Shown: positions 4,610 through 46,030 of the stretch, in pieces
Layout of the letters: every line of letters begins with the position of its first letter
Numbering within the stretch: position 1 is the first letter of the stretch
Source: an uncultured bacterium
GTDB taxonomy: Bacteria; Patescibacteriota; Microgenomatia; UBA1400; CG1-02-47-37
NCBI GenBank assembly: GCA_963980215.1
Contig: CAXBYZ010000004.1
Span: 1-54,793, forward strand
DNA: 54,793 nucleotides
Direction of reading: 5' to 3'
Notes under the pieces: generated by a model
Told to the model about the DNA's origin: nothing
The model's input: only the letters and a program-made list of their open reading frames with translations
Databases searched by the model: none
Program-made: the position numbers and the translations under genes

Positions 4610-5479
4610 ATGTATATAGATACGCATTGCCATCTTAACCTGAAAGATTTTGAGAGTGATTGGAGAGAAGTGGTTGAAAAAGCTAAAAAAGCTGGTGTTT
4701 CAAAGATGATTGTGGTGGGAGCTGACTTAAGTTCTAGCAAGAGAGCTATAGAAATGGCGGAAGAAGTTGAAGGTCTTTATGCTGTGGTTGGATTTCACCC
4801 ACATCACTGTAAGGGTCTTGATGATGTTGATGAGATGATGGCCTCAATAGAAAAACTTACCAAAAACAAGAAAGTGGTGGCTATTGGTGAGTGCGGGTTG
4901 GATTACCATGTGTATCAAAAATCTAAGTATGAAAAAACTCAAGTAACTGAGGATCAAAAAAAATTGCAAAAACGGGTGTTTGGGAGACAAATTCAATTAG
5001 CTAGTAAATTGAATTTACCTCTAGTAATTCACAATCGAGAAGCTCAAAGAGATATTTTGGATACAATTGACCATTTTTGTAAAAGTGATGGCAAGTACCC
5101 AAAAGGAGTGTTTCATTGTATTTCTGGCTCTAAAAAATTTGTGAAACAACTGATAGAGAGGGGTTTTTATGTAGGGGTAGACGGAAATGTTACGTATAGT
5201 AGTGAGGTTCAGGCTTTAGTAGATGAAATACCACTTGAACGATTGTTGCTTGAAACTGATTCTCCTTGGCTAACACCGGAGCCGTTACGTAGCCAACAGA
5301 AGGTTCCGAACCGTCTTTCGCTAAAGCTGCAGACCGCTGATGGTTTGGAACCAAAATTGAGAAATACTCCTATAAGTGTTAGAATCGTGGCCGAGTACTT
5401 ATCTCAAGCAAAAAATGTTAGCTTAGAAAAAATAAGAGCCTCAACGACTAAAAATGCTGAGGCTTTGTTTAATATATGA
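4610..5479 (+). CDS. tatD: TatD family hydrolase carrying a ~20-aa palindromic-element insertion
   Basis: 'IDTHCH', 'GFHPH', 'IGECGLDY', 'LLLETDSP'; extra peptide between 'PEPLR' and 'RNTP'. Confidence 0.93.
   Translation: MYIDTHCHLNLKDFESDWREVVEKAKKAGVSKMIVVGADLSSSKRAIEMAEEVEGLYAVVGFHPHHCKGLDDVDEMMASIEKLTKNKKVVAIGECGLDYHVYQKSKYEKTQVTEDQKKLQKRVFGRQIQLASKLNLPLVIHNREAQRDILDTIDHFCKSDGKYPKGVFHCISGSKKFVKQLIERGFYVGVDGNVTYSSEVQALVDEIPLERLLLETDSPWLTPEPLRSQQKVPNRLSLKLQTADGLEPKLRNTPISVRIVAEYLSQAKNVSLEKIRASTTKNAEALFNI
5300..5352 (+). repeat. family-I doublet, subtype A cargo, inside tatD
   Basis: AAGGTTCCGAAC-cgtctttcgctaaagctgcagaccgctgat-GGTTTGGAACC; homologous to 24054-24105 and 44075-44126. Confidence 0.9.
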
Positions 5480-6963: not shown

Positions 6964-6970
6964 TTAATTA

Positions 6971-10855: not shown

Positions 10856-10856
10856 G

Positions 10857-12845: not shown

Positions 12846-13553
12846 TTAGTATTCTACCCTAATTTCATGAATCCAAATTTTTGGAGGACGAGACAATATA
12901 TAGACAATGGTGTCGGCTAGATCTGCTGGATTAGTGAATTTTTCAAGAGGTGGGGTTTCTCCAGTTTTATGAAACATTTGAGTGTTGGTGCCACTTTGAT
13001 AAATTCCTGCAACCCTAATATGAGTGCCTTTAAGGTCGGCTTTTAGGGTTTCAGTAAAGCCTCTAACACCCCACTTACTAGCAGTGTAGACTGATTGACC
13101 AGCCTGAGCGGTGACACCAGATTTTGAAGAGACGTTGATGATGGCAGCGTCTTTTTGTGTTTTGAGGTGAGGCAAAATAAGATTGGTGGCGTGGATTAAA
13201 GAGGTTAAATTGGTTTGAATAACGTCGTCAATAATTACTGGCTTAACTTTTTCAATAGGCATCATTTTTTGCCAAATGCCAGCACAGTTGATTAAGATAT
13301 TAATTTGCTTGAAGTCTTTGGCAATAGATTTTATGGTTTGAGTTAGTTTTTCGGTGTTGCGAATATCACAAGGGTAGGCTTGAACTTTTTTGGCACCAAG
13401 CTTGCTGGCTTGTTTGGCAACTTCTTTTAAGTTTGATTCTGTTCGACTAATTAAAGCAAGGTTTGTGCCTTGTTTGGCTAGTTTTAGGGCAATTTGTTTG
13501 CCAATACCCTGACTAGCTCCGGTAATAATGGCGGTTTTGTTTTTTAAGTTCAT
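12846..13553 (-). CDS. short-chain dehydrogenase/reductase
   Basis: 'TGASQGIG', 'NCAG', 'YTASK'. Confidence 0.92.
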   Translation of the reverse strand: MNLKNKTAIITGASQGIGKQIALKLAKQGTNLALISRTESNLKEVAKQASKLGAKKVQAYPCDIRNTEKLTQTIKSIAKDFKQINILINCAGIWQKMMPIEKVKPVIIDDVIQTNLTSLIHATNLILPHLKTQKDAAIINVSSKSGVTAQAGQSVYTASKWGVRGFTETLKADLKGTHIRVAGIYQSGTNTQMFHKTGETPPLEKFTNPADLADTIVYILSRPPKIWIHEIRVEY

Positions 13554-14551
13554 AGTTTGTTTTTAATTTCTTTAATTGTATATCTTTTTTGCTTAAGTTG
13601 GCGAATTTTTTTAATTTGTTTAATCATGCTTGAGTCGTAAAGCTGGTAGCCACCGTTTGAGTGACTGCTGACAGTGAGTAAGCTTTGAGTTGTCCAGAAC
13701 CTAATAGTAGAAACTGTTTCTTTTGAGGCTTTAGCTAATTGACCAATTTTAAGTAAAGGTGAAGGTTTTTTGCTTGAAGGTTCCGAACTAAATTTCGGAA
13801 AGTTCGGAACCCGCGGAACTCTGGCGGACAGATAAATATCTAAAGAATTATTGACTGATTGGTAAATTAATTTATAGTAGCTGTCCAAGCTACCGCCTAT
13901 CTGAGCGGTTTCTAAAGATTTTAGATAGGCAAGTCTATTTGTTAGCTTAATAATAATAGGCGGATAGCCTGCTTTAATTAAGAAAAGGTTCATTAGTAGT
14001 CTAGCGGTGCGACCATTTCCGTCTGCAAAAGGGTGAATAGTAACCAAGTGATAGTGAGCATCAGCGGCTAGCTTAACTGGATGAAGTGATTTATTTAAGT
14101 TAATTTTGTGAACAAATTTGGTCATTAAGGTTTTGATTTTTGTTGGATTAGGCATGATGACTCTGGATCCAGCAATTCTAACGGCAGTGCTTCTGTATCT
14201 ACCAGCACTTTGATCGTCTATTTTTGAGAGAATTATTTGGTGAAGATCTAAAATGTCATTTTCTTTTAGAGTGTAGTTTTTTTTAGCAAGAGAATAAACA
14301 TAATCCAAGGCTTGGGCATGATTAGTGGCTTCTAGGTGTTCTTTTAAAGATTTACCGTTAACAGTGATGCCTTTATCTAAAACTATCGCAGTTTGCTGTC
14401 GTGAAAGAGTATTACCCTCAATAGCGTTTGAGGTGTAGGTTAACTCGACTCTAAGCCAATCCTTAAGGTTTCTAGATAGATCCTTTGGAAGAGGCTTGGC
14501 CTGATCGAGTTTTTTCTTTTTATCGTCAATAATCTTAAGCAGGTTTTTCAT
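13550..14551 (-). CDS. Fic family protein with C-terminal MerR-type HTH
   Basis: 'SNAIEGN' autoinhibitory motif, 'HPFADGNGRTAR', C-terminal 'LKIGQLAK...TIRFW...GGYQLY'. Confidence 0.88.
   Translation of the reverse strand: MKNLLKIIDDKKKKLDQAKPLPKDLSRNLKDWLRVELTYTSNAIEGNTLSRQQTAIVLDKGITVNGKSLKEHLEATNHAQALDYVYSLAKKNYTLKENDILDLHQIILSKIDDQSAGRYRSTAVRIAGSRVIMPNPTKIKTLMTKFVHKINLNKSLHPVKLAADAHYHLVTIHPFADGNGRTARLLMNLFLIKAGYPPIIIKLTNRLAYLKSLETAQIGGSLDSYYKLIYQSVNNSLDIYLSARVPRVPNFPKFSSEPSSKKPSPLLKIGQLAKASKETVSTIRFWTTQSLLTVSSHSNGGYQLYDSSMIKQIKKIRQLKQKRYTIKEIKNKL
13777..13811 (+). repeat. family-I doublet in the Fic-MerR linker
   Basis: AAGGTTCCGAAC-taaatttcggaa-AGTTCGGAACC; encodes RVPNFPKFSSEP on the minus strand. 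Confidence 0.88.
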
Positions 14552-14627
14552 TCTAGTGTGAAGTATAAAGTATTACTTAATGGTTGTCAAATTAAAAATA
14601 ATTGACGGGGACCTGTCATAAGGTACC

Positions 14628-14658
14628 AAAAACCCCTCCGATGTGCTCGGAGGGGTTT
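14628..14658 (-). terminator. rho-independent terminator of groES-groEL
   Basis: AAACCCCTCCGA-tgtgc-TCGGAGGGGTTT stem with a T-run on the minus strand. Confidence 0.85.
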
Positions 14659-14675
14659 GAGATTTTTTAACTTGC

Positions 14676-14713
14676 AAGGTTCTGAACTCGAACTTCTTTT
14701 GAAGTTCGGAACC
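14676..14713 (+). repeat. family-I doublet, intergenic (3' of groEL)
   Basis: AAGGTTCTGAAC-tcgaacttcttttga-AGTTCGGAACC, with internal CGAACTTC-tttt-GAAGTTCG hairpin. Confidence 0.85.
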
Positions 14714-14725
14714 AACGAACTTTGC

Positions 14726-16679
<1,954 letters not shown>

Positions 16680-16722
16680 AAGCTTCCTCCTATAAATTAT
16701 TTAAATATTTAATAAAATTAAG

Positions 16723-16749
16723 CTATCACTCGATGATAGCAAGTGCTAG
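16723..16749. promoter_or_regulatory. degenerate CIRCE (HrcA operator)
   Basis: CTATCACTC-N9-AAGTGCTAG versus consensus TTAGCACTC-N9-GAGTGCTAA, immediately upstream of groES. Confidence 0.7.
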
Positions 16750-16772
16750 TGTATGAGATTTAAAAAACTTTG

Positions 16773-17162
16773 TCAAGCAGGGATTGTGTGGGCTTGAAGC
16801 CAAGCGGCTATAATCTCGACTGAGAAATTTTTATTTTCTGAGTTAACGGCAAACTCAACTAACTCCTGATGGGAATATTTTAGCTTAAGGTTATTTATTT
16901 CCAAAAACATCAACGTTGCTGAGCTTGAAGTTCTTTTGTTGCCATCAATAAAACCATGATTTTTTGTTAATGACTGCCAGAGAGCTCCTGCTTTTTTGAA
17001 AATGTTTGGATAAAGATCTTTGCCGGCAAATGATGATTGTGGCCTAAAGATGGCTGAGTGAAGTAAGTTCCAATCTCTGATTCCTAAACTACCACCTGTT
17101 TTTTTAACGATTTCGTCGTGAAGAAAAACAACTTGTTCAATGGTGAGGTATACAATCGACAT
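16773..17162 (-). CDS. Doc (death-on-curing) family toxin
   Basis: 'LLHSAIFRP', 'NHGFIDGNKRT'. Confidence 0.9.
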   Translation of the reverse strand: MSIVYLTIEQVVFLHDEIVKKTGGSLGIRDWNLLHSAIFRPQSSFAGKDLYPNIFKKAGALWQSLTKNHGFIDGNKRTSSSATLMFLEINNLKLKYSHQELVEFAVNSENKNFSVEIIAAWLQAHTIPA

Positions 17163-17419: not shown

Positions 17420-17458
17420 AGTTATAACTATGTTATAACATGGGTAATTAACTGTCAA
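17417..17458 (-). promoter_or_regulatory. TA promoter with tandem palindromic operators
   Basis: CATAGTTATAACTATG (17417-17432) and ATGTTATAACAT (17430-17441); TTGACA-17nt-TAACAT on the minus strand. Confidence 0.7.
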
Positions 17459-22561: not shown

Positions 22562-22584
22562 ATTTAAGGTTCGGAACCTTAAAT
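22562..22584. repeat. family-I extended singlet overlapping the stop codon of ORF 22579-24222
   Basis: ATTTAAGGTTC-G-GAACCTTAAAT, identical to 23034-23056. Confidence 0.9.
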
Positions 22585-24222
22585 AATTTTGTCATTTCTA
22601 ATAAACTTTTGTAGTTCTTTTTCTGAGTAGTGGCGGACTTTATATTTGAGGATTTTAGTGGTGGAGAGCTTGGGGTTGTGGGGGTGGACGACTATAACGG
22701 AGCCGCCAATTTGCTTCATGAGCTTTCGTTTAGCGGGAAGGTTTGGGGTGTGGGCGGAGACGGCAAGAATGTCAGGTCTAATTTTTTTTAGTAATTTTAG
22801 GTGATCAGTTGGGTTATCAAATTTTTCTGGGAGAGAGAAAATTTGATCGGCAATCCCCCACTTTTTTAGGTTTTTAATTCTGGTGTTTATGGGGTTAATG
22901 GGGCGGTTTTTGCCTTTGAGTTTTTTGACCCGGACGTCTGTTTCGAGGCCGACTAAAAGGATGTTTGGTGATACACCTCCGAGGTGCACCGCAGGTGCAA
23001 CCTCACCTCGGAGGTGGTGAGATTGGGGTGAAAATTTAAGGTTCGGAACCTTAAATTTTTTGGCGGCTTTGAGAAATTTTTTGTGTTCCTCATGAAGAAC
23101 GTCGAAGCAGCCGGTGATGAGGATTTTGGTAGACATTGAAGGTTCCGAACTAGCCTCGACATTCGTCGAGGTCGTCCCGATTAAATCGGAACTGGAAGTT
23201 CGGAACCCTACACCTTTAAGGACTGTCCTTAGCTTGGCTTTGTATTCCTTTATAACTATTTTGCCGGTGGGACGAGGGTGAAAAAAGGCAGAGTGAAGGG
23301 TGACTTTTTCGTTGGTGATTTTTTTCTTCATGTAAGCATATTGAAGCTTGAAGGCGAGGAGGTTGAGATAGTTCAATACAGAAGGTTCGGAACTAGCTCC
23401 GGTGTTCACCGGAGTTGCAAGATTACTTGCTGAAGTTCCGAACCAACGAGGCTTGGTGGTTTTATCTTCTGTTAAGAACTGTTCTTGTAGGGCGTTTTTG
23501 GGTAGTGCATTGGGTAAGAATTTTTTGACCCAAGAGTTTGTAGAGATAAATTTTTCGTAAGTTTGGTCTTTATTGTAAAGGGGTTTGATTTGGCAAACTT
23601 CGTGAGCAGTGTAGAGATTGCGGCGAGATTTAGGTATAGAAATGGATGATTCTTCTAAGAAAAGGTTGAGGCAGATGGCATTCTCGGGTCCGAGTACGGA
23701 CTCGAGTCCTTTAAGGTCCGGCCTTAAAGGAGTACCTTCAAGAACGGACCTTTTTTGAGGACGACGACGGAGGTGAAAGATTTCTAGGAGAGGAATAACC
23801 AACAAGCGAGTCAACCAAAGACGGTTGGTGGTGGTGACAATCATAAGATCGATGTCGTCGTTTTTGTCTGAGTTGTTCATGGCTAAGGCTCCGGTGACGG
23901 CAATTAATTTAACTGAAGGGATAGCACTTAAAATTTTAGATATTTTTTTAGCTTTAGTTAACTTTAATTGACTAAAGTGATGGCGAGATTTGCGGATCTT
24001 GGCAAGATGGGAGCGGTTTGGGAGGTGGTAATAATTGGAGGTTTTCCCAATCAAAGGTTCCGAACTGCCTTTCGCTTTGCTGCAGGTTGCTGAAAGTTCG
24101 GAACCAACGAGTCCTGAAAGAACGGACCTTTTATCTGAAATTAGCCATTTAATTATCTCTTTCTTGGTTAGAGGATAGTCGAAAATATCGGCATAAGCGA
24201 GAGTTTTTAAGATGGCTTCCAT
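22579..24222 (-). CDS. fusion of a Pol-beta-like nucleotidyltransferase domain and a cytidylyltransferase-like domain, with many palindromic insertions
   Basis: N-part 'AVTGALA...DDIDL'; C-part 'ITGCFDVLHEEH...LVGLETD..VKKLKG.NRP'. Confidence 0.72.
   Translation of the reverse strand: MEAILKTLAYADIFDYPLTKKEIIKWLISDKRSVLSGLVGSELSATCSKAKGSSEPLIGKTSNYYHLPNRSHLAKIRKSRHHFSQLKLTKAKKISKILSAIPSVKLIAVTGALAMNNSDKNDDIDLMIVTTTNRLWLTRLLVIPLLEIFHLRRRPQKRSVLEGTPLRPDLKGLESVLGPENAICLNLFLEESSISIPKSRRNLYTAHEVCQIKPLYNKDQTYEKFISTNSWVKKFLPNALPKNALQEQFLTEDKTTKPRWFGTSASNLATPVNTGASSEPSVLNYLNLLAFKLQYAYMKKKITNEKVTLHSAFFHPRPTGKIVIKEYKAKLRTVLKGVGFRTSSSDLIGTTSTNVEASSEPSMSTKILITGCFDVLHEEHKKFLKAAKKFKVPNLKFSPQSHHLRGEVAPAVHLGGVSPNILLVGLETDVRVKKLKGKNRPINPINTRIKNLKKWGIADQIFSLPEKFDNPTDHLKLLKKIRPDILAVSAHTPNLPAKRKLMKQIGGSVIVVHPHNPKLSTTKILKYKVRHYSEKELQKFIRNDKII
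22974..23016 (+). repeat. family-III doublet (CACCT-CCG-AGGTG ... CACCT-CGG-AGGTG)
   Basis: Same architecture as family I with a different stem; inner hairpin GCACC-gca-GGTGC; encodes HLRGEVAPAVHLGG. Confidence 0.85.
23031..23059. repeat. family-I extended singlet, intragenic
   Basis: AAAATTTAAGGTTC-G-GAACCTTAAATTTT (14-bp perfect arms); encodes KFKVPNLKF. Confidence 0.92.
23139..23207 (+). repeat. family-I doublet with two inner hairpins at the domain junction
   Basis: AAGGTTCCGAAC-ta-GCCTCGAC.attc.GTCGAGGT-cgtc-CCGATT.a.AATCGG-aactgga-AGTTCGGAACC. Confidence 0.92.
23217..23231. repeat. family-IV triloop hairpin (TAAGGA-CTG-TCCTTA); a variant AAGAA-CTG-TTCTT lies at 23474-23486
   Basis: Perfect stems with a CTG loop, each next to a family-I doublet. 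Confidence 0.55.
23382..23444 (+). repeat. family-I doublet with two inner hairpins (loop order swapped)
   Basis: AAGGTTCGGAAC-ta-GCTCCGGTG.tt.CACCGGAGT-t-GCAAG.atta.CTTGC-tga-AGTTCCGAACC. Confidence 0.92.
23684..23752 (+). repeat. family-II composite element (69 bp)
   Basis: TCGGGTCCG-agta-CGGACTCGA hairpin plus the 40-mer AAGGTCCGGCCTTAAAGGAGTACCTTCAAGAACGGACCTT (23713-23752). Confidence 0.93.
24054..24130 (+). repeat. family-I subtype A doublet (24054-24105) plus an internally deleted family-II remnant (24108-24130)
   Basis: AAGGTTCCGAAC-tgcctttcgctttgctgcaggttgctgaa-AGTTCGGAACC, then CGAGTCCT-ga-AAGAACGGACCTT. Confidence 0.9.
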
Positions 24223-27503: not shown

Positions 27504-29029
27504 AAATGTTGCGCCCTCAAAGGTCCGGCCTTAAAGGAGTACCTTCAAGAACGGACCTTACTATGATAATAGTATTGGGTTTGTTAGGGTTACTATTAGT
27601 TCAGTGGTTGACTCCCAATATTTGGGGGGCAGATGGGTATTACCATATTCAACTGGCGGAGATGTTTAAGAATAGTGGTTTTTTGAAAACTTTGCCTCAA
27701 GCTAGATTTTCTCATTTTGTTGATAGATTTTCTAATAAAGATTGGCTCTATCACCTAGTGCTAGTACCCTTTACTGGTTTTAATAACCTTTTTGTGGGAG
27801 CAAAGTGGGCAGCTTTTGTGTTTGGAGGAATTTTATATAGTAGTTTGTTGATGGTTGCTAGTTACTATGTTTCTAGTGTTGGTTTGATAATTGTAGGGGT
27901 GTCCCCTTTTCTATCTAGTCATTTTATTCAGACTTTGTCTCGACCCAGACCGATGGTGCTGGGAATTACTCTTGGTCTATGGGTGGTTCACTTTTTGATT
28001 CAGAAAAAAAACAAGCAAGTTTTTTGGGGGTCTTTGGTTTACTCGATGATGCATATTACTGCGCCTTTGGTGATTGGATATGGAGTGGTGGTGAGTTTCT
28101 GGAGATGGTTGTTTAAAGAAAATTCCAGGTACGGAACCTGGAATTTAGTGGGGATGGCTGTTTTGGGAGTTTTGGGCGGGTTTATTCTACATCCTAATTT
28201 TCCTAATAACTGGTTTTATTTTTACTTAAACGGAATCTTGGTGCCGTTTTTCGCAGCCCGCTGGGGGGTTTTGGAGTTGGGGGCAGAGTTTTTTCCGATG
28301 ACCACCTTGGATTATTTTAAAAATTATCCCTTAATAGTTTTGGGATTGTTGTTTATGGTAGTAGTGGTTTTGGTGGAGAGACCAAAAGTAAAGAGTGAGA
28401 CTCAGGTAATGTTTTTGTTGACAAGTGTGTTTGTGGTGATGGGGATGATGAGTCAGAGATATATTGCTCATGGCTATCCTTTTATGGTTTTGAGTTTAGC
28501 TATGTTTGTTAGTGATTGGCACAGAGATAAGGAGTTTAAGAAATTTTTGAAGAAGATTGAGGGGGCAGTTAACTTAATTATGGTAAGTGGACTAATTATA
28601 GTGATATTGCTGATATTTAGTGGTTTTAAGAGAATGGTGGCAACGGCTAAGGGAACCAGCGTGATGAATGGCCACTACGAAGAGATGGGTGGGTGGCTAA
28701 AGGATAATGTGCCTGAAGGTGAGTTAATCTTTCATTCTAACTGGTCTGACTCCCAGTACTTTATTGGAGTTAATCCCAAAAATGATTATTTTGTAACTAT
28801 GGATCCTGTTTATATGTGGCATAAAAATCAAGAGGTGTATAAACTTTACCGAGCGGTGGCGTTTGGGCAAATCGAGGATCCTTATAAAGTTTTGAAAGAA
28901 GGGTTTAAAGTAAATTATGGTTATGTGGGGAAGAATTATTTTTCCGCTTTGGTTGATCAAATTAACAATGATGAGCGGTTTGAGGTGGTTAAAGAAGACC
29001 AATTTGGATTAATTTTTAAGTTAAAGTAA
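27500..29029 (+). CDS. GT-C-like polytopic membrane protein
   Basis: 'GADGYYHIQLA', 'WLYHLVL', many TM helices; start is ATG 27500 or 27563. Confidence 0.65.
   Translation: MKMLRPQRSGLKGVPSRTDLTMIIVLGLLGLLLVQWLTPNIWGADGYYHIQLAEMFKNSGFLKTLPQARFSHFVDRFSNKDWLYHLVLVPFTGFNNLFVGAKWAAFVFGGILYSSLLMVASYYVSSVGLIIVGVSPFLSSHFIQTLSRPRPMVLGITLGLWVVHFLIQKKNKQVFWGSLVYSMMHITAPLVIGYGVVVSFWRWLFKENSRYGTWNLVGMAVLGVLGGFILHPNFPNNWFYFYLNGILVPFFAARWGVLELGAEFFPMTTLDYFKNYPLIVLGLLFMVVVVLVERPKVKSETQVMFLLTSVFVVMGMMSQRYIAHGYPFMVLSLAMFVSDWHRDKEFKKFLKKIEGAVNLIMVSGLIIVILLIFSGFKRMVATAKGTSVMNGHYEEMGGWLKDNVPEGELIFHSNWSDSQYFIGVNPKNDYFVTMDPVYMWHKNQEVYKLYRAVAFGQIEDPYKVLKEGFKVNYGYVGKNYFSALVDQINNDERFEVVKEDQFGLIFKLK
27520..27559 (+). 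repeat. family-II 40-mer
   Basis: Identical to 23713-23752; reads RSGLKGVPSRTDL in the host frame. Confidence 0.95.
28120..28146. repeat. degenerate family-I extended singlet, intragenic
   Basis: AAATTCCAGGT-acgga-ACCTGGAATTT (core one mismatch from GGTTCGGAACC). Confidence 0.75.
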
Positions 29030-31823: not shown

Positions 31824-31843
31824 AGTTGTATTATAATACCTTT

Positions 31844-34075
31844 ATGGATAAAACTTATAAAGCATCAGATCATGAGGGGAAGATTTACCAGAAATGGGAG
31901 GAGTCGGGGGCGTTTGCACCTAGTGTAAACGGGAAACCATTTACAATTATTATGCCGCCGCCGAATGCTAATGACCCGCTTCATGTGGGACATGCCATGT
32001 TTATCTCAGTTGAGGATATCTTTATTCGATATAAGAGAATGCAAGGGTTTAGCACTTTGTGGTTGCCGGGAACAGACCACGCTGGGATAGAAACACAGTT
32101 TGTTTTTGAGAAGAAATTAAAAAAACAGGATAAAAGTCGATTTGACTATGACAGGGAGACTTTGTATCAAATGATTTGGGATTATGTGCAAGAAAACTCT
32201 GAGGTGGCAATTAATCAAATGAAGAAGCTTGGAGCTAGTGCTGACTGGAAGAGGAAGAAGTTTTCCTTGGATAAAGATGTTGTTGAGAAAGTTCTTGATA
32301 CTTTTATTCAGTTACATAAAGATGGGCTTATTTACAGGGACAACAAACTGGTTAATTTCTGTACTAGGTGTGGGACTGCATTTTCTAACTTGGAAGTTGT
32401 TCATACTGAGAAGAAATCTCCACTTTACTACATGAAGTATGGGCCATTTGTGTTAGCAACAACAAGGCCAGAAACTAAGTTTGGTGATACGGCAGTAGCC
32501 GTTCACCCCAAAGATAAGAGATATGCTAAATGGATTGGTAAGGAGATAGAAGTTGAGGGGTTGCTGGGTAAATTTATGATAAAAGTAGTGGCGGATGAGT
32601 ATGTGGATCCTAAGTTTGGAACTGGAGTGGTGAAGATAACTCCGGCACATGACTTTAATGACTTTGAAGTGGGTAAGAGACATAAGTTGGAAGTTAAGCA
32701 GGTGATTGGTTTTGATGGAAGATTAAATAAACACTGTGGAGAGTATGCTGGCTTAACGGTGTTTTCGGCCAGAGAAAAAGTGGTAGAGGGTTTGGAGAAA
32801 AAAGGTTTGATGGAAAAAATTGACAAAGATTATGTTCACTCCGTGGGGAGTTGTTATCGATGTGGGCGAGCAATTGAACCTCTTCCCTTACCTCAGTTTT
32901 TTATTAAAGTGAAGAATTTAACCAAGACCGTGCTTAAAGCTTTGAAAGAAAAAAAGGTGAAAGTTTATGGTTCGGGACATGAGAAAATATTAAAACACTG
33001 GCTAGAAAACTTAAATGATTGGAATATTAGTCGACAGATAGTTTGGGGGATTCGAATTCCGGTGTGGTACTGCAAGAAGATTGAAGGTTCCGAACTAGCC
33101 CAATCAAAGATTGGGTTGGCTAAAGCCAGAAGTTCGGAACCCTGTTATGTTGTTAGTAAAGATAAGCCAAACAAATGTAGTAAGTGTGGTTCAACAACGT
33201 TTGCACGGGATGAGGATACTTTTGACACATGGTTTTCTTCTGCACAGTGGCCGGTGGTGACTTTAAAAACAGGCAAAAAATCTGATTTTGAGAAGTTTTA
33301 TCCAACAGATTTGATGGAGACTGGATATGATATTCTTCCCTTCTGGGTGATGAGAATGTTGATGATGGGATTGTACTCAACTGGAAGAGTACCTTTTAAA
33401 AGTGTTTATCTTCATGGAATGGTGAGAGATGGTAGAGGACAAAAGATGAGTAAGAGTAAGGGTAATGTTATTAATCCGGTGGAGATTGTGGATAAGTATG
33501 GGGCCGATGCTCTAAGAATGGCCTTAGTGATGAGTAGTACGGCTGGAAATGATAAGTCTGTGGGGGATGAGACAATTAGAGGAATGAGAAATTTAACTAA
33601 TAAGATTTGGAATGCGGCGAGGTTTGTGATGGAGTTTTTGCCGGAGACGGCTAATAATCAAGGTTCCGAAGAACCTTTTTCGGGTTCGAGTACGAACTCG
33701 AGTCCTCAAAGGTCTGGCCTTAAAGGAGTACCTTCAAGAACAGACCTTAGTCAACAAAGTTCGAAACCATCTAGTTTTGAAGGAGATAAAGAGTTTGAGG
33801 AAGAGATTTCCAAGATTGTAAATGAGGTGACCAAACAGCTTGAAGACTACAAGTTGGGGTTGGCGGCGGAAACGGTGTATAACCAGTTTTGGCATTGGTT
33901 TTGTGATGAGTCCATCGAGTCGGCTAAAGAAGGTAAAGTTAGCTACCCTGTTTTGATGAATGGATTAAAGACATTTTTGAAACTTCTTCATCCTTTTGTA
34001 CCATTTGTAACAGAAGCAGTTTGGCAAGAACTTGGTGAAGAACAATTATTGATTACAAGTAAATGGCCTATTTAA
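31844..34075 (+). CDS. valS: valine--tRNA ligase (no C-terminal coiled coil; two element-derived insertions)
   Basis: 'PPPN', 'HVGH', 'GTDHAGI', 'WNISRQ', 'DTWFSS', 'KMSKS'; likely start MDKTY at 31844. Confidence 0.96.
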   Translation: MDKTYKASDHEGKIYQKWEESGAFAPSVNGKPFTIIMPPPNANDPLHVGHAMFISVEDIFIRYKRMQGFSTLWLPGTDHAGIETQFVFEKKLKKQDKSRFDYDRETLYQMIWDYVQENSEVAINQMKKLGASADWKRKKFSLDKDVVEKVLDTFIQLHKDGLIYRDNKLVNFCTRCGTAFSNLEVVHTEKKSPLYYMKYGPFVLATTRPETKFGDTAVAVHPKDKRYAKWIGKEIEVEGLLGKFMIKVVADEYVDPKFGTGVVKITPAHDFNDFEVGKRHKLEVKQVIGFDGRLNKHCGEYAGLTVFSAREKVVEGLEKKGLMEKIDKDYVHSVGSCYRCGRAIEPLPLPQFFIKVKNLTKTVLKALKEKKVKVYGSGHEKILKHWLENLNDWNISRQIVWGIRIPVWYCKKIEGSELAQSKIGLAKARSSEPCYVVSKDKPNKCSKCGSTTFARDEDTFDTWFSSAQWPVVTLKTGKKSDFEKFYPTDLMETGYDILPFWVMRMLMMGLYSTGRVPFKSVYLHGMVRDGRGQKMSKSKGNVINPVEIVDKYGADALRMALVMSSTAGNDKSVGDETIRGMRNLTNKIWNAARFVMEFLPETANNQGSEEPFSGSSTNSSPQRSGLKGVPSRTDLSQQSSKPSSFEGDKEFEEEISKIVNEVTKQLEDYKLGLAAETVYNQFWHWFCDESIESAKEGKVSYPVLMNGLKTFLKLLHPFVPFVTEAVWQELGEEQLLITSKWPI
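33084..33141 (+). repeat. family-I doublet with two inner hairpins inside valS
   Basis: AAGGTTCCGAAC-ta-GCCCAATC.aaa.GATTGGGT-TGGCT.aa.AGCCA-ga-AGTTCGGAACC. Confidence 0.93.
33660..33768 (+). repeat. nested element in valS: degenerate family-I arms enclosing a family-II composite (33680-33748)
   Basis: AAGGTTCCGAA...TCGGGTTCG-agta-CGAACTCGA...AAGGTCTGGCCTTAAAGGAGTACCTTCAAGAACAGACCTT...AAGTTCGAAACC. Confidence 0.92.
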
Positions 34076-39177: not shown

Positions 39178-39679
39178 TTACTGGCTGGTCGTCTTCAATT
39201 GGAAGGGGTGGAGTGTTGGCTTCTGGGTCTTTAGGCTTGACTATTAAGTGCCTGTTTCTACCTTCTCCCTCTGACTCGGTAATTATGTCTGGATCAGCTT
39301 CTAGGATGAGGTGAACTGTTCTTCTTTCAAATGGATTTAGGTTAAAAAGAGCGATTGGTTCGTTTGAGAACTTAACTCGTTGGGCGGTGTCGTCGGCTAA
39401 GACCTTTAGAGACTCTTCTCTTTTTTGACGATAGTCGCCGATGTTTAAGATGGCTCTAGTCCAAGAACCAGACTCTTTGTAGGCAATAAGGCCGATCATT
39501 AGCTGGAGAGCTGCTAGAGTATCTCCGTGATAACCGATAAGGATACCTGAGTCGGCTTCTGGTAGTTTGATGTCAACACTGAAGGTGTTGGCTTCGTCTT
39601 CTTTGACAGTGATGGCTTCTGGGGTGATGTCGAGTTTGGATAGAAGGTCTTTGGTGATTTTTTCTAGAGATTTTTTCAT
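39170..39679 (-). CDS. jag: Jag/KhpB RNA-binding protein (KH + R3H)
   Basis: 'LIGYHGDTLAALQ', 'ERRTVH', 'SEGEG'. Confidence 0.9.
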   Translation of the reverse strand: MKKSLEKITKDLLSKLDITPEAITVKEDEANTFSVDIKLPEADSGILIGYHGDTLAALQLMIGLIAYKESGSWTRAILNIGDYRQKREESLKVLADDTAQRVKFSNEPIALFNLNPFERRTVHLILEADPDIITESEGEGRNRHLIVKPKDPEANTPPLPIEDDQPVNE

Positions 39680-40461
39680 AACTGTTTATTTTTCAAGTAT
39701 AGTTGCTGAATTAACATAAAGACAGAGAAGGTGAGCCAGTAAAGAACTAGACCAGAGGGGAACTTGAAACCAATAAAAATAGTCATTAAGGGCATCATGT
39801 AGAGCATTTGTGACTGCATGGCGGCGGCCATGTCGTCTGTTTCTTCCTTAGTTTTTTTGGTTTGTTCTTTGGTGGCTTTGGCTGCCGGCATCATTAATTT
39901 GCTGGATAAGAATTGGGCGACTGCGGCGGCTATTAGAAATAAACCTGGCAATCTGTTGATAGTGTATTTTAAGAACTTGATGTCTTTGATGACAAATAAA
40001 TCTGGTTGAGTTAAGTCTAGGTATAAAAATTTAGTGTTTAAAGTAAACTCTTTTGAAAGTTTTAAGCCTTGATAGAGAAGGTTGTTTAAAGTCTCGACTA
40101 TGTTTCCCTCTGGTTTTAAAACTTGATTGAAGGCTTGAAACAAAGCGATGAGAATAACTATCTGAACTATTTGAGGTAAACATCCAGAGGCGGGGTTGAC
40201 GCCGTGTTTTTTGTAAAATTCTAGTTGCTTTTGAGCAAATTGTTGCTTGTCTTTAGAGTACTTGCTCTTTAACTTAGCTAGCTCTGGCTGGAGGCTTTTT
40301 AGTTTTTGGGCTGATTTTAATGAAGGAAGAGTGAGGGGAGTGAGGGCACCTCTAATAAATAAAGTTAAACCAATAATGGCTAGGCCTAAATTTTGACCCA
40401 AAAATTGGTAGAAAAAAATTAAGGCATTAACTAGTGGTTGATAAAAAATTGTGTTCCACAT
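39676..40461 (-). CDS. yidC: membrane protein insertase YidC
   Basis: 'GLAIIGLT', 'NPASGCLP', 'SGLVLYW'; likely start MWNTIF at 40461. Confidence 0.94.
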   Translation of the reverse strand: MWNTIFYQPLVNALIFFYQFLGQNLGLAIIGLTLFIRGALTPLTLPSLKSAQKLKSLQPELAKLKSKYSKDKQQFAQKQLEFYKKHGVNPASGCLPQIVQIVILIALFQAFNQVLKPEGNIVETLNNLLYQGLKLSKEFTLNTKFLYLDLTQPDLFVIKDIKFLKYTINRLPGLFLIAAAVAQFLSSKLMMPAAKATKEQTKKTKEETDDMAAAMQSQMLYMMPLMTIFIGFKFPSGLVLYWLTFSVFMLIQQLYLKNKQL

Positions 40462-40477
40462 AATAAAAATTGTTCCT

Positions 40478-40513
40478 AGGTTACGAACCAAAATTTCGGA
40501 AGGTTTGTAACCT
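40478..40513 (+). repeat. family-I doublet (ACG variant) between yidD and yidC
   Basis: AGGTTACGAACC-aaaatttcgga-AGGTTTGTAACCT; same spacer as 13777. A degenerate singlet CAAGG-cttggaa-CCTTG lies at 40521-40537 in the yidD tail. Confidence 0.85.
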
Positions 40514-40728
40514 TACCCTTCAAGGCTTGGAACCTTGTCTATTCCTCCTTGATTCCAAGGGTGACATTTAAAAATCCTCCTAATACCAAGGAGGCTACCT
40601 CTTAATATACCATATTTGTTAATAGCTTGATAGGAATAATCTGAACAAGTGGGTGAGAATCTACAGTTTTTGGAGTTTTTGGTCAAACTTTGATATATAT
40701 TAATTGTTTTGAGAAGAATTTTTTTCAT
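40513..40728 (-). CDS. yidD: membrane protein insertion efficiency factor YidD
   Basis: 'CRFSPTCSDY', 'RIFKCHPW..GGID'. Confidence 0.94.
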   Translation of the reverse strand: MKKILLKTINIYQSLTKNSKNCRFSPTCSDYSYQAINKYGILRGSLLGIRRIFKCHPWNQGGIDKVPSLEG

Positions 40729-41351: not shown

Positions 41352-42734
41352 ATGAATATAGAAAGTTTATGGGCAGCGGTGTTAGCTGACCTTGAGTTAA
41401 ATTTATCCCCTGGAAATTTTACGACCTGGATAGCTCCCTTGAAAGCAGTGGAGTTAAAAGGTGGTAGTGACGAGAAGTTTTCTCTTGTGGTGGGGTGCCC
41501 CTCTGTTTTTCATAAAAACCAAGTTTCTGATAGGTATGTTGGAAAAATTCAAACTGTGGTTGAAGAGAGTTTGAAAACTAAGTGCGAAGTTGAACTTTTG
41601 GTGGTTAGTATTGATAAACCGAACAGTGGTGATAACGAGATAAGTGACGATCTTTTTTCTGTTGATACTGATAAGATGGCTTTAGAGGCATACGAGAATG
41701 GTTTTTATAAGGCTGGTTTGAGCCCAGGGCTTACTTTTGATAACTTTGCGGTTTCGAGCAGTAATGAAGTGGCTCATGCGGGAGCGAGGACTGCGGCTAG
41801 TAAGCCTGGGCAAGTTTATCACCTAATTTTTATTTATGGCGGAGTAGGGGTGGGAAAGACTCACTTGATGCAAGCAGTAGGGCATGAAATGTTGAAAAAA
41901 AACCCTGATCAGTCAATTGTTTATTGCACTGGAGAAGAGTTTACAAATGAGATTATTGAAGCGATTCGAAATAGATCGACCCCTGTTTTTAGACAAAAGT
42001 ATAGAAAAGCTAGAGCTCTATTTCTTGACGATGTTCAGTTTATTGGCGGAAAAGAGAAGGTTCAGGAGGAATTTTTTCATACCTTTAATGCTGTGATAAA
42101 AGAAGGGGGACAAGTTATATTGACCAGCGATAGGCTTCCTAGTGAAATTGTTGGACTAGAAGATAGACTAAGAAGCCGGTTTGAAGGGGGGTTAACTGTT
42201 GATGTCCAGGAGCCTGGGTTTGAGCTACGGGCAGCAATATTATTGATAAAGGCTCAACAAATGGGGGTTGAGTTACCGATGAAGGTGGCTCAGATGATCG
42301 CGGCTAATGTGGAGTCGACCAGGAAACTTGAAGGGATTTTGTTAAGGTTGAGTGGAGAGGTTTTGACTAGAAAAGAGCCTTTAACTGAGGAGTTGGCGAT
42401 GGCCCTACTTAATAAAATTGGGGGAGAGGCTGAGGTGTCTAGAAAAACTGTGACTCCGAAACAAGTTTTAAATGAAGTTTCAAAATTTTACCAAGTAAAG
42501 CCGGCTGAACTTAAGGGTAGCAGGAGGTTAAGGGCGGTGGTTTTACCAAGGCAAGTGGTGATGTATTTGCTTAGAAAAGAGTTAAATTTGCCTTTAAAAG
42601 AGGCGGGTAAACTTTTGGGGGGAAGAGATCACACAACTATTATCCATGGCCAAGATAAAGTTTCCAAGATGTTACCGAGTTCGGAAAAGTTAAGAATGGA
42701 TATTTCTGTGATTAGAAAAAGCTTGTATAGGTAG
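41352..42734 (+). CDS. dnaA: chromosomal replication initiator DnaA
   Basis: 'GGVGVGKTHL', 'DDVQF', 'QEEFFHTFN', 'RLRSRF', 'GGRDHTT'; likely start MNIESLW. Confidence 0.97.
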   Translation: MNIESLWAAVLADLELNLSPGNFTTWIAPLKAVELKGGSDEKFSLVVGCPSVFHKNQVSDRYVGKIQTVVEESLKTKCEVELLVVSIDKPNSGDNEISDDLFSVDTDKMALEAYENGFYKAGLSPGLTFDNFAVSSSNEVAHAGARTAASKPGQVYHLIFIYGGVGVGKTHLMQAVGHEMLKKNPDQSIVYCTGEEFTNEIIEAIRNRSTPVFRQKYRKARALFLDDVQFIGGKEKVQEEFFHTFNAVIKEGGQVILTSDRLPSEIVGLEDRLRSRFEGGLTVDVQEPGFELRAAILLIKAQQMGVELPMKVAQMIAANVESTRKLEGILLRLSGEVLTRKEPLTEELAMALLNKIGGEAEVSRKTVTPKQVLNEVSKFYQVKPAELKGSRRLRAVVLPRQVVMYLLRKELNLPLKEAGKLLGGRDHTTIIHGQDKVSKMLPSSEKLRMDISVIRKSLYR

Positions 42735-42930
42735 TGGATAAGTTTTGATCGAGTGGGGATAAGTTTTCAAGTTATCCACAACTTTGATAGTTATCCACAA
42801 ATTGTTCACAATTGTTTCCACAAAAAGATGTGGGTTTTGCACAAGAAAATATCCCAAAGACACTTGACGAAAAATCGTTTATAATGAAGATATTAACACT
42901 GCCTACTAAAGACTACTACTAAGTATTAAT
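42733..42930. other. oriC-like region: DnaA-box cluster, DnaA-trio-like repeats and AT-rich tail
   Basis: TTATCCACA at 42772 and 42791; near-matches at 42733, 42754, 42802, 42814, 42835; GCC-TACTAAAGACTACTACTAAG at 42901-42923. Confidence 0.8.
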
Positions 42931-42942: not shown

Positions 42943-44067
42943 ATGAAAGTTTCGTTATTGCAAGAGAATTTAGCCAAAGGGGTGATGATGGTTGGTAGGA
43001 TGGTAGCAAGTAAGGCGCAGTTGCCGGTTTTATCTAATATTTTGCTGGTAACAGAGTCTGGAAAGTTAAGAGTGTCAGCAACAAATTTAGAAACAGGAAT
43101 GAATGTGTGGATTTCCTCAAAGATAGATGAGCCTGGAAAGATTACGGTGCCTGCTAAGATATTTATGGAGCTGGTGAGCTCTTTACCTAAAGAGACAGTT
43201 ATTCTTGAGACTGAGGGAGAGAAGATTAAGGTGACTTGCGGCAAGTTTAAAGCAACGGTTAATGGGATATTGGCTGAAGAGTTTCCTGAGGTACCAAGTC
43301 TAAAAAGTGGGAGTAAAAAAGGAGTTGAGTCTTTAAAGATAAAAACAAGCGTTTTTGAGAGCTTTATCGATCAAGTGGCTATGGCAGCTGGAGTGGATGA
43401 AGCAAGGCCAATTTTTACTGGAGTGAAGTGGGAGATAGGTAAAAACATTAAGCTAGCAGCTACAGATGGTTACCGTTTGAGCGTAAAGAAGATTAAGGGG
43501 GTGTCATGGTCTGGAGAGAAAAAAGAGATGATAGTGCCGGCTAAGGCATTAATGGAGATAACCAAGATCGTTTCTAAGGTAGATGATGATGAAGTGTTAG
43601 TAGCGGTGACGGATAAAGATAAGCAGTTAATACTGGCTCTTAAAGATGTTGAGGTGGTAACTAGGTTGATTGAGGGAGAGTTCCCTGATTTTGAGAAGAT
43701 AATTCCAACAACAGCAAGTAGTACGGTTGAACTTGATAGAGAGGAGTTGACTCAGGCGGTGAGGGCGGTGGCCATCTTTGCTAGAGATAGTGCCAACATT
43801 GTTAAGTTTAAGGTGACGGATAAATATTTATTGATTTCGGCAAATGCCCCACAAGTGGGAGAGAACGAGGTCGGAGTGAGTGTTGAAAGAAAGGGAGAAG
43901 AGACAGAGATAGCTTTTAATAGTAGATATTTATTAGAAATTTTATCTTTGGTGAAGGCTGAGAGATTAACTTTATCGATGTCTGGGCCGTTAAATCCTGG
44001 TGTTTTTAGGGAAGTTCCTGACCAAGACTTTTTACATATTATTATGCCGGTGAGGGTGCAGGGGTAG
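42943..44067 (+). CDS. dnaN: DNA polymerase III beta clamp
   Basis: 'PVLSNILL', 'ATNLE', 'ATDGYRL', 'LIEGEFP', 'IIMPVR'; AAGGAG RBS. Confidence 0.97.
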   Translation: MKVSLLQENLAKGVMMVGRMVASKAQLPVLSNILLVTESGKLRVSATNLETGMNVWISSKIDEPGKITVPAKIFMELVSSLPKETVILETEGEKIKVTCGKFKATVNGILAEEFPEVPSLKSGSKKGVESLKIKTSVFESFIDQVAMAAGVDEARPIFTGVKWEIGKNIKLAATDGYRLSVKKIKGVSWSGEKKEMIVPAKALMEITKIVSKVDDDEVLVAVTDKDKQLILALKDVEVVTRLIEGEFPDFEKIIPTTASSTVELDREELTQAVRAVAIFARDSANIVKFKVTDKYLLISANAPQVGENEVGVSVERKGEETEIAFNSRYLLEILSLVKAERLTLSMSGPLNPGVFREVPDQDFLHIIMPVRVQG

Positions 44068-46030
44068 AGTCGTTAGGTTCCGAACTGCCTTTCGCTGGCG
44101 CTGCAGGCCGCTGAAAGTTCGGAACCGTGGCCGGTGAGGGTGCAGGGGTAGATGTTGGGTTGGTTGCGGGGGCGGGCTGTTTGTTGGCCAGTACTTCTTT
44201 GGGGTCACTGGTGATAAGAGCGTGTTCGTCTGGTGAGGCAACCACCTTTACAGCTACGTGGTTTTGACCAGCGAAGATAATACCGTGGCCAATGCCGGCC
44301 CCTAAAAGTAAGTGTTTTTCTCCTTCGGAAAGGTAAAAGATTTTAGCTAGCTTGTCGATAGCGGCGGTACTTTGTTTCATTAAAATTTGAATTGAAGAGT
44401 TGGTGACGATGGCTTTGCCGTAGTCTGAGGAGAGAAAGTCTTCGACATCTTGAGTGATGGTGGTTAAACCCAGATAGTATTTCCTGGCCCTTTTGGCCAT
44501 GGAGTAGAGGAAGCTAGCTGAGTCTGGGTATTTCATCATGTACCAAGCCTCGTCGACGACTAGTAGCCTTTTTTTTAGGTCTTTTTTAACTTTTGTCCAG
44601 ATGTGATCTAGAATCATGAACATGGCAATAGGGCGAAGGGCATCTTCTAGTTCCTGAATAGAGAAAACAGTAAAAGTGTTTTGAATGTCAACATTGGTGT
44701 GTTGGTCAAAGATGCCCCGAAAGGAGCCTTTGACAAATTTTTCTAGGCGAGCGGCCAAGTTAAGGGCAGCGGTTTCTTCCATGCCGATTAAAACTTTATA
44801 CAGGTCTTCAAGGAGAGGGGGTTCTTTTTTTTGAGTGGCAGGGTCGGGGGTGATGCCTTTTTGTTTGTAGGTTAAGATAATACTTCTATCTAGAAGAGCT
44901 TCTTCTTGAGGGGAGAGGTCACCCATGATGATTTTAAAGAGGGAGTGAAGAGAGAGAATTTTTTGGGAAAGTTCGTTTTGACCTTCTTCATAAACTTGAG
45001 ATAGGTCAAAGGGGTTTATTTTTGAAGTAGATTTAAAAGAAAATTGAATGTATTGACCGCCCACGGATTCACAGAGTTTTTGATACTCGTTTTCAGGATC
45101 GATAATGATGACTTCAGTGTCAAACATTAATGACCTTAGGGCTTCAAGTTTAACAAGGTATGATTTACCAGCACCAGATTTAGCAAAGACGACGGAGTTA
45201 GCGTTTTCAAGAGAAAATCGGTCGAGAATAATGAGAGAACTGTTGTGCTGATTGATGCCGTACAAAACACCCGTATCTTGAGTTAACTCTGAAGAGGTAA
45301 AGGGAAAAGTGGTGGCTAGAGAGGTGGTGTCCATGTTTCTGGTGATCATTAGTCGATCTTGAGCTAAAGGGAGAGTGGTTTTGAAGGCGTCATTCATTTG
45401 AAGGCTGGCTGGTTTGGCAATGATCATGAGCGAGCCTAGGGCTGATTGAACTTGTTTGGTAATTTTATTTAATTCTTCTAAGGAGTCGGCAGGGATAGTA
45501 ATGTAGAGGCCAAATTGAAAGAATCTCTCAGAGCCTTTAGCTAACTCAATTTGAAGAGACCTGGCATCTTCTAGTTGAACTTTGGTGGAGACGTCGGCAA
45601 TTTTACCCCTTTCAATGTCTGACTGGATCTCGGCCTCCATTTCCCCGACTTTTCTTCTTAGATCACTCATGATGCCACGGCCATCGATGGGGTAGATATA
45701 CATGGAAATATTAAGAGAGTGTCTAAAGTTGATTAAGGGGGAGAGCCAGTTGGCGTTGACAAAGCGAGGGTAGCCAGAGACAAAAAGGGTGCGAAAGTAG
45801 GTGTTGTCAATTTTTTGGTGAGAAAAGTCAATTTCGATGGCTGAGGGGGCAATTATATCCTGGACAGAGGTGACTCCTCGGGAGAACTGATCTTGTTCAA
45901 AGCTGGTTTCTTGTTTGGTTTGTTTCGGGGTGGCCTGAGAAGCCGGGTTTGGGGTTGGCGAGTCACCTGGTTTTTGATCAGCTTTTGGGGTCGATGGAGG
46001 TTTTTTGGGTAGAGAAAGATTAAGTTTCAT
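44042..46030 (-). CDS. VirB4/TraC-like ATPase
   Basis: Walker A 'AKSGAGKS', 'IIDPENEY', 'VVDEAW', 'RARKY', 'ITQ'; likely start MKLNL at 46030. Confidence 0.88.
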   Translation of the reverse strand: MKLNLSLPKKPPSTPKADQKPGDSPTPNPASQATPKQTKQETSFEQDQFSRGVTSVQDIIAPSAIEIDFSHQKIDNTYFRTLFVSGYPRFVNANWLSPLINFRHSLNISMYIYPIDGRGIMSDLRRKVGEMEAEIQSDIERGKIADVSTKVQLEDARSLQIELAKGSERFFQFGLYITIPADSLEELNKITKQVQSALGSLMIIAKPASLQMNDAFKTTLPLAQDRLMITRNMDTTSLATTFPFTSSELTQDTGVLYGINQHNSSLIILDRFSLENANSVVFAKSGAGKSYLVKLEALRSLMFDTEVIIIDPENEYQKLCESVGGQYIQFSFKSTSKINPFDLSQVYEEGQNELSQKILSLHSLFKIIMGDLSPQEEALLDRSIILTYKQKGITPDPATQKKEPPLLEDLYKVLIGMEETAALNLAARLEKFVKGSFRGIFDQHTNVDIQNTFTVFSIQELEDALRPIAMFMILDHIWTKVKKDLKKRLLVVDEAWYMMKYPDSASFLYSMAKRARKYYLGLTTITQDVEDFLSSDYGKAIVTNSSIQILMKQSTAAIDKLAKIFYLSEGEKHLLLGAGIGHGIIFAGQNHVAVKVVASPDEHALITSDPKEVLANKQPAPATNPTSTPAPSPATVPNFQRPAAPAKGSSEPNDSTPAPSPA
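44046..44152 (+). repeat. family-I subtype A doublet (44075-44126) flanked by a perfect 23-bp direct repeat
   Basis: GCCGGTGAGGGTGCAGGGGTAGA at 44046-44068 and 44130-44152. Confidence 0.93.

Follow-up and report, generated by a model that had tools for sequence, protein, structure and literature searches.

REP/REPIN-like hairpin elements nearly always face the same way on the G-rich strand in an uncultured member of the Patescibacteria

The 54,793-nt stretch of DNA analysed here (the window) is the entire contig C4 (CAXBYZ010000004.1) of a draft genome from an uncultured Patescibacteria member of the UBA1400 lineage (G000; 820,410 bases, 45 contigs, approximately 39% G+C), and it carries numerous short palindromic sequences, which are hairpin elements of the REP/REPIN-like type (REP, repetitive extragenic palindromic). 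Both in the window and throughout the genome, these elements were found to lie, with few exceptions, with a common polarity relative to the G-rich strand, regardless of the direction of their host genes and on either side of dnaA. On balance, we consider it probable that the elements are tied to the 16 genes of this genome for HUH transposases resembling REP-associated tyrosine transposases (RAYTs), and that a mechanism acting on single-stranded DNA sets their polarity on one chromosome-wide strand.

Element polarity in the window and across the genome

An earlier note on this DNA had claimed that its asymmetric elements share one orientation on the + strand, and all four groups that it named could be matched to the sequence, each being single-oriented. 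These groups were three subtype A copies (5298–5354 in a plus-strand host, 24053–24105 and 44075–44126 in minus-strand hosts), three Y-shaped copies (23136–23207 and 23383–23444, host on the minus strand; 33081–33143, host on the plus strand), three family-II 40-mers (23713–23752, host minus; 27520–27559 and 33709–33748, host plus) and two copies of the motif aaatttcgga (13780 and 40480). The chance of such agreement for these 11 window copies alone is 1/128. Motif counts over the genome, given as G-rich versus C-rich strand, were 7:0 for the left junction of the Y-shaped elements, 8:0 for the 40-mer and 2:0 for aaatttcgga. All 16 window copies present in a self-BLAST catalogue had the majority polarity of their family (three in plus-strand genes, eight in minus-strand genes and five outside open reading frames, ORFs).

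Elements were found by repeat finding, k-mer counts and self-BLAST, and G000 proved to hold many families of them. Some are single hairpins with cores such as AAGGTT-loop-AACCTT and loops of CCG/CGG or ACG/CGT; others are composites, in which inverted 11-mers, GGTTCCGAAC ... GTTCGGAACC, surround a variable and often branched insert of 8–110 nt. As single-stranded DNA, the elements fold into long hairpins or three-way junctions far beyond shuffled controls (−23.3 kcal/mol, z = −8.8 for 23383–23444; −21.7 kcal/mol, z = −6.5 for 23679–23756).

For the genome-wide analysis, copies were oriented within their self-BLAST family by forward-minus-reverse alignment scores and then compared with the sign of contig skew, polarity being scored against the G-rich strand of each contig since G000 is a draft of 45 contigs. 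Seven components were excluded, six of them gene fragments or tRNA pieces and one a mixed component, from which four families defined by their loops were separated on the basis of stem sequence, and same-family copies were collapsed into loci within 2 kb. Across 22 hairpin families, 145/164 copies and 118/132 loci were concordant with the G-rich strand; random re-orientation of the loci yielded 86.7 on average (sd 3.4), with 118 reached in 0/100,000 permutations. In the seven families assigned with confidence (minimum score margin of at least 80; components 2, 3, 4, 7, 9, 12 and 13), concordance was complete, with 62/62 copies, of which 36 lay in high-skew, nine in low-skew and 17 in intermediate contigs. 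With skew classes delimited by cut-offs of 0.32 and 0.24, which were set after viewing the distribution, concordance was 65/77 in high-skew, 41/46 in low-skew and 39/41 in intermediate contigs. The 19 discordant copies were nearly all near-perfect palindromes, asymmetric at the loop centre only.

A catalogue-free check gave a similar picture: among 30 composites with both 11-mer ends, A was present at position −1 of the G-rich strand in 30/30, and the mirrored TT on the 3′ side was seen in 7/30. A control family of tRNA fragments split 2:2. When polarity was learnt on high-skew contigs and tested on low-skew contigs with all families pooled, 21/35 copies agreed, a figure driven by families with one low-confidence high-skew copy (components 1, 16, 18 and 20); in the confident families, 9/9 low-skew copies matched the 36 high-skew ones. 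The 78-nt element at 23679–23756 also had 24, 13, 14 and 3 matches, respectively, in four further genomes from the same family, and 23/23 fetched loci in four related genomes, with two pairs of overlapping loci and kin genomes that are not independent, lay forward on the locally G-rich strand.

Host gene direction and base composition

The further claim that orientation is independent of host gene direction was confirmed. Copies whose host gene lies on the G-rich strand were concordant in 53/63 cases, and those whose host gene lies on the C-rich strand in 34/38 (Fisher p = 0.56); outside ORFs the figure was 58/63. For the 101 of 164 copies lying at least 80% inside an ORF, family majorities summed to 75 relative to the gene and to 89 relative to skew; host genes were called with a crude longest-ORF caller, which limits these intragenic counts. 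An orientation that tracks transcription, i.e. host gene direction, is extremely unlikely: nothing favours it except a partial correlation between gene strand and skew class, and it was rejected on the equal concordance on either gene strand and the majorities of 75 versus 89. Nor does it appear at all probable that base composition, or strand-biased mutation, gave rise to the polarity as a side effect of acting on once-symmetric palindromes. Such a process agrees with the distribution of CGG versus CCG loops, which follows the G excess of the G-rich strand, but the elements' own GC skew is close to zero (0.06 overall, with values of 0.01, −0.02 and −0.04 for the largest three of the asymmetric families), the conversion of ACG to CGT takes three transversions, and ACG lies on a strand on which T is at least as frequent as A in most contigs. 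Moreover, what makes the composites asymmetric are indels common to their copies and branched inserts, both passed on by descent, and on this ground, together with the near-zero skew of the elements, a composition artefact was rejected.

GC skew and the origin region

GC skew in the window was above zero in 27/27 intervals of 2 kb. Each of the 45 contigs of G000 has a single skew sign, the exceptions being three isolated 2-kb intervals at −0.04, 0.04 and −0.03, and contig skews span 0.1–0.5. Both regional class and gene strand affect skew (high class, 0.44 and 0.34; low class, 0.28 and 0.15). The C-rich strand holds 55% of the coding bases of G000. The lowest skew of the window, 0.01–0.08, occurs at 14001–18000, the minus-strand GroEL/GroES region.

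The earlier note had expected element orientation to flip at the origin and terminus, and this was not borne out. Skew in the window stays positive across dnaA, the DnaA boxes and dnaN, subtype A copies to the left and to the right of dnaA share one orientation, and high-skew and low-skew contigs carry one element polarity. The magnitude of skew does step at dnaA, from 0.18 in the minus-strand genes to its left (n = 19) to 0.33 in those to its right (n = 7; Mann-Whitney p = 0.0125).

In G011, a closed genome of the same family (1,049,888 nt), skew was likewise above zero in 53/53 intervals of 20 kb. It rises from approximately 0.12 to approximately 0.25 exactly at dnaA-dnaN (1,010,138–1,012,884) and falls near 455 kb, and at each of these points the strand that holds most of the genes changes as well. 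The skew of G011 forms two plateaus (approximately 0.22 and 0.10) divided by sharp steps, one at dnaA-dnaN and the other roughly opposite it, and within a plateau plus- and minus-strand genes are similar in top-strand skew. In a second closed genome, G027, the two 20-kb samples were alike in sign (−0.23 and −0.08). Working from closed genomes, PMC7143001 described G/C disparity along the whole chromosome for Ca. Chazhemtobacterium, Collierbacteria and Beckwithbacteria, and proposed unidirectional replication for the lineage.

Replication direction was judged from skew, DnaA boxes and gene strand only. The step at dnaA, the opposite step and the accompanying change in gene strand favour a degree of bidirectional replication overlaid by a constant component. 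The proposal that insertion is coupled to replication rather than transcription consequently stands in part: polarity is independent of transcription and follows the sign of skew, but the expected flip at origin and terminus fails. Polarity thus appears to be coupled to one physical strand and not to ordinary replichores, barring unidirectional replication.

RAYT-like Y1 HUH transposases

G000 contains 16 matches to Pfam Y1_Tnp (PF01797) above the curated cut-off, one of them in the window. A His-hydrophobic-His motif (NHFH/NHYH) and a Tyr in a YIHxNP-like context were present in 16/16 translations (208–265 aa). By eye, NP followed YIHx in 15/16 proteins, the window copy being the exception, and none had the full NP(L/V)(R/K)xG motif that adjoins the Tyr in RAYTs (PMC2817692). 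In 15/16 loci the gene is bracketed by its own hairpin family, and the 16th locus lies at a contig end; a third hairpin copy is often found at a fixed site inside the RAYT-like coding sequence. Where the flanking hairpins have an asymmetric loop, loop polarity is the same on both sides, i.e. the hairpins are direct and not inverted. The 16 Y1_Tnp genes, their motifs and the cognate hairpins around 15 of them show that an HUH enzyme of the kind invoked in the earlier note is present.

NF047646 (REP_Tyr_transpos) was the only NCBIfam match of the window protein, the one of the 16 proteins that was run, and homologues of this protein are labelled 'Candidatus Beckwithbacteria', 'Patescibacteria group' and 'RayT'/REP-associated tyrosine transposase by public sources. 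A search of solved structures with it returned no match at E ≤ 0.01. A GTAG head 5′ of the palindrome was considered as a marker of the active strand and dropped as too rare, being present in 3/80 hairpins (xTAG in 5/80 on the G-rich strand versus 0/80 on the C-rich strand).

Five of six close RAYT paralogues (C23:4601–5239 and those on C14, C5, C8, C15 and C4) are located on the C-rich strand. In C23 the gene copy and its internal hairpin are both inverted, while the hairpins on its two flanks keep the polarity of the G-rich strand; this arrangement would result if the segment had inverted between the arms of the palindromes that flank it.

Features of the window

The elements and genes of the window are collected in Table 1; GroEL is also among the window genes confirmed by Pfam. 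The ORF at 22579–24222 (minus strand, 547 residues) has a family match limited to residues 422–524, which are cytidylyltransferase-like, and its first ~400 residues cross at least seven stacked hairpin elements with the frame remaining open. The VirB4/TraG-type ATPase gene, followed by further minus-strand ORFs, adjoins dnaN (44042–51366, minus strand). A neighbourhood of VirB4/TraG-type genes beside dnaN is common in Patescibacteria, and most such systems are without a relaxase (PMC12102498).

Table 1 Elements and genes of the window
Feature	Position	Strand	Basis
TatD gene	4610..5479	+	Pfam
Subtype A composite hairpin, in frame in TatD (4610..5479, +)	5298..5354	+	Repeat catalogue, fold, TatD alignment
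Fic/MerR gene	13550..14551	-	Pfam
Short composite with aaatttcgga core (13780), inside Fic/MerR gene (-)	13777..13811	+	Catalogue, fold, motif count
Composite of comp2 family (that of 13777..13811), intergenic	14676..14715	+	Self-BLAST catalogue
Single REP-like hairpin, TTTAAGG core, loop CGG on G-rich strand	22563..22583	+	k-mer/repeat finding
Asymmetric hairpin element comp13, in ORF 22579..24222 (-)	22973..23017	+	Self-BLAST catalogue
Single REP-like hairpin, TTTAAGG core	23035..23055	+	k-mer/repeat finding
Y-shaped composite, left junction GGTTCCGAACTAGC, in ORF 22579..24222 (-)	23136..23207	+	Motif count
Y-shaped composite, three-way junction, in ORF 22579..24222 (-)	23383..23444	+	Catalogue, fold, motif
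Hairpin with family-II 40-mer (23713-23752; host gene -)	23679..23756	+	Catalogue, fold, motif
Subtype A (24053-24105) with 3′ tail, in ORF 22579..24222 (-)	24053..24134	+	Catalogue, fold
Family-II 40-mer (27520-27559) at start of ORF 27473..29029 (+)	27513..27560	+	Catalogue, motif
Class I tRNA synthetase gene	31826..34075	+	Pfam
Y-shaped composite in class I tRNA synthetase gene (+)	33081..33143	+	Motif count
Hairpin with family-II 40-mer (33709-33748) in class I tRNA synthetase gene (+)	33677..33749	+	Catalogue, fold, motif
YidC gene	39676..40491	-	Pfam
Second aaatttcgga copy (40480), GGTTACGAACC ends, 5′ end of YidC gene (-)	40479..40515	+	Motif
Minimal composite, two inverted 11-mers with 5-nt spacer, upstream of dnaA	41210..41239	.	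Repeat finding
dnaA	41283..42734	+	Pfam Bac_DnaA, DnaA_N, Bac_DnaA_C
Four DnaA boxes (0-1 mismatch) within 67 nt, dnaA-dnaN spacer, likely oriC	42733..42799	.	
dnaN	42943..44067	+	Pfam DNA_pol3_beta, three domains
VirB4/TraG-type ATPase ORF	44042..46108	-	Pfam
Subtype A, right of dnaA-dnaN, 3′ end of VirB4/TraG-like ORF (-)	44075..44126	+	Catalogue, fold
REP-like hairpin directly downstream of RAYT-like gene, loop ACG on G-rich strand	51406..51435	+	Catalogue, fold
RAYT-like Y1 HUH transposase gene, 208 aa	51436..52062	-	Pfam Y1_Tnp, 35 bits (cut-off 23)
Hairpin as at 51406..51435, within RAYT-like coding sequence	51848..51877	+	Catalogue
Two further copies of the 51406..51435 hairpin, upstream of RAYT-like gene (52078-52104, 52122-52151)	52078..52151	+	Catalogue

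Insertion sites and in-frame copies

Flanking direct repeats were no longer than expected by chance in 54/57 composite copies: the median length of the longest such repeat was 5 nt (null mean 5.6), with 3/57 copies reaching at least 9 nt. In the absence of a regular target duplication, the 'peel and paste' mode of HUH enzymes fits, and MITEs (miniature transposable elements with inverted repeats) of the DDE type do not; inverted 11-mer ends are present, as in such MITEs, but a regular target duplication of fixed length was not seen. On the 5′ side of the composites with both ends, the G-rich strand carries, in addition to the invariant A at −1, A at −2 in 23/30 and G at −3 in 16/30, bases that may belong either to the target or to the element.

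A perfect direct repeat of 23 nt (44046–44068 and 44130–44152) flanks the subtype A copy at 44075–44126 and is a duplication of the 3′ end of dnaN, stop codon included. It is the sole long flanking repeat among the 57 composites, the next longest being 11 and 10 nt.

Alignment of the window TatD with a solved TatD showed a 21-residue insert (aa 229–249) exactly at the subtype A copy, which leaves the frame and the C-terminal domain intact. The idea that element peptides are read in frame is thus borne out for TatD, whose insert has no counterpart in G011, and because polarity ignores host gene direction, an inserted peptide would be read from either strand of the element. At the TatD site (5293–5355), G011 has no element, G003 has the one seen in the window, and two paralogues from G002 have inserts that differ from each other and from it. 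The site may be a hot spot of insertion or one of element replacement.

No clean empty site was encountered among the short, low-depth contigs of four runs. Within the element at 40479–40515, 22 nt are missing from one X5 contig (depth 4.4), and single, low-depth contigs of X5, X6 and X7 have 1-nt insertions in the 24053 copy.

Comparison with known systems

Like REP/REPIN-RAYT systems, the elements described here comprise short palindromic repeats, spaced inverted-repeat doublets and a Y1 HUH gene placed between its own hairpins (PMC2817692, PMC3116915), with several diverged hairpin-enzyme pairs per genome. They differ in that 16 such genes occur in 820 kb, that the flanking hairpins are direct and not inverted, and that there is no general GTAG head (3/80). 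Furthermore, REP sequences are extragenic, whereas many copies here are intragenic, one of them proven to be in frame; the NCBIfam cut-off is not reached, polarity is near-absolute to one strand, and the host belongs to the Patescibacteria. Replication-linked polarity of REPs is not reported in the main text (supplements apart) of PMC3116915, PMC6006769 or PMC2817692, as far as these texts were covered. Our literature search returned no paper linking Patescibacteria or Beckwithbacteria with REP, REPIN, RAYT or IS200, and for Beckwithbacteria and GC skew it returned PMC7143001 only.

IS608 and ISDra2, relatives within IS200/IS605, insert into the lagging-strand template with an orientation bias, and they share with the present system a Y1 HUH enzyme, end hairpins on one strand, the lack of target duplication and an orientation bias tied to a strand, which for IS608 and ISDra2 is the one exposed as single-stranded DNA at the fork (PMC5027513). 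The proteins reported here are longer, at 208–265 aa, than IS200/IS605 transposases, which average less than 150 aa (PMC2817692). In addition, most copies here are non-autonomous, the candidate target motif is limited to A at −1 (30/30) where IS200/IS605 elements have a fixed tetra- or pentanucleotide beyond their left end, and orientation does not flip across dnaA.

To our knowledge, no transposase is known for Rickettsia palindromic elements (RPEs), and no strand polarity of RPEs has been reported. In placement, the present elements resemble RPEs, which are palindromic repeats lying in frame in unrelated housekeeping genes and for which the review PMC10969869, in the part covered, names no transposase.

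The disparity of the UBA1400 lineage, with one strand G-rich chromosome-wide and similar gene counts per strand (PMC7143001), is shown in G011, and G000 is consistent with it. For the genome of PMC7143001, the portion of the text covered deals with composition only and says that mobile elements are lacking, whereas here the polarity of sequence families marks the same strand; the step of skew magnitude at dnaA in G011 and in the window is likewise not described in that portion.

Discussion

A single-strand DNA mechanism, for which IS608 and ISDra2 offer a precedent (PMC5027513), is likely to lie behind the polarity reported here. HUH enzymes act on hairpins in single-stranded DNA, cutting and joining one strand. 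In the mechanism that we favour, a copy would therefore be placed, and perhaps kept, only if the strand recognised by the enzyme belonged to whichever chromosomal strand is regularly exposed as single-stranded DNA. This exposed strand would lose C by deamination and so become G-rich; with one G-rich physical strand all round the chromosome, elements would not turn at dnaA/oriC. Polarity would follow the G-rich strand and ignore host direction because the exposed strand would be the G-rich strand. That RAYT-like proteins move the elements, and that single-strand exposure sets their polarity, is what we infer from sequence.

Several results weigh against this mechanism. The window RAYT-like protein scores 37.6 bits to NF047646, below the 80-bit cut-off, and composite ends resemble the hairpin cores of only 3/16 RAYT loci (C14, C23 and C15). 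Near-perfect palindromes are less polarised, with components 11, 14, 16 and 18 splitting 3:2, 2:2, 2:2 and 2:2, and the four loop-defined REP families are concordant in 29/35. In the closed relative G011 polarity is weak (22/27 copies from six hairpin families), though the 6/8 copies from its low-skew half that share the majority polarity of the high-skew half lend the mechanism weak support, elements being few. The 41/46 concordance of low-skew contigs is also at odds with it, in that simple lagging-strand targeting would predict mixed polarity in low-skew regions if these are replicated leftward in ordinary rounds, as the step at dnaA and the gene-strand change in G011 suggest; given bidirectional replication, near-absolute polarity in these contigs exceeds what a simple ratio of fork exposure predicts. 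Finally, RAYT number and skew magnitude were uncorrelated among 39 relatives (rho = 0.13, p = 0.42), a weak test with one 2.5–20 kb sample per genome and kin that are not independent. RAYT-like enzymes as the cause of the skew thus found no support.

Ordinary targeting of the lagging-strand template under bidirectional replication, with orientation flipping along with skew at origin and terminus, is distinctly unlikely. IS608 and ISDra2 behave in this way (PMC5027513), and orientation does follow the sign of skew in every contig class here, but there is no sustained change of sign in 45 contigs, dnaA, the DnaA boxes and dnaN of the window are passed without one while subtype A stays the same on both sides, G011 is positive throughout with steps in magnitude only (at dnaA, 1,010,138, and ~455 kb), and 55% of the coding bases of G000 lie on the C-rich strand. 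We would give a somewhat better, though still low, chance to unbiased insertion followed by loss of one polarity, whether through selection against a strand-specific hazard or through precise strand-specific excision. The bias in low-skew regions, which goes beyond the simple exposure ratio, would suit such later removal, and turnover is real, as the different elements at one TatD site across genomes indicate. Against it, both strands form nearly the same hairpins, so that a polarity-specific hazard is hard to name; decayed copies of the minority polarity numbered 0/62 in the seven confident families; and HUH excision from the exposed strand would take the majority and not the minority polarity.

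As an extension of the favoured mechanism, which we regard as rather improbable, a second process might expose the same physical strand all round the chromosome on top of bidirectional replication, with the polarised hairpins as its cis sites. Candidates may be unidirectional or rolling-circle-like rounds of replication, or single-strand handling linked to the relaxase-less type IV secretion genes beside dnaN. Nicking by an HUH enzyme at hairpins that all face one way may initiate such a process, which may set both the constant G/C disparity and the polarity.

REP/RAYT systems, the orientation bias of HUH insertion sequences and, since 2020, the whole-chromosome G/C disparity of this lineage were already known. 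What is new is the link between them, namely that a non-compositional polarity of sequence families marks the disparity strand to either side of dnaA and in high- and low-skew contigs alike. Element polarity is thereby an independent read-out, or second marker, of a strand that is treated differently, and the mode of replication of these chromosomes, whether by one fork, two or otherwise, becomes testable through insertion polarity. For an organism with a minimal genome, this one is very densely supplied with HUH enzymes (16 genes within 820 kb) and tolerates hairpin elements in frame within genes of essential type.

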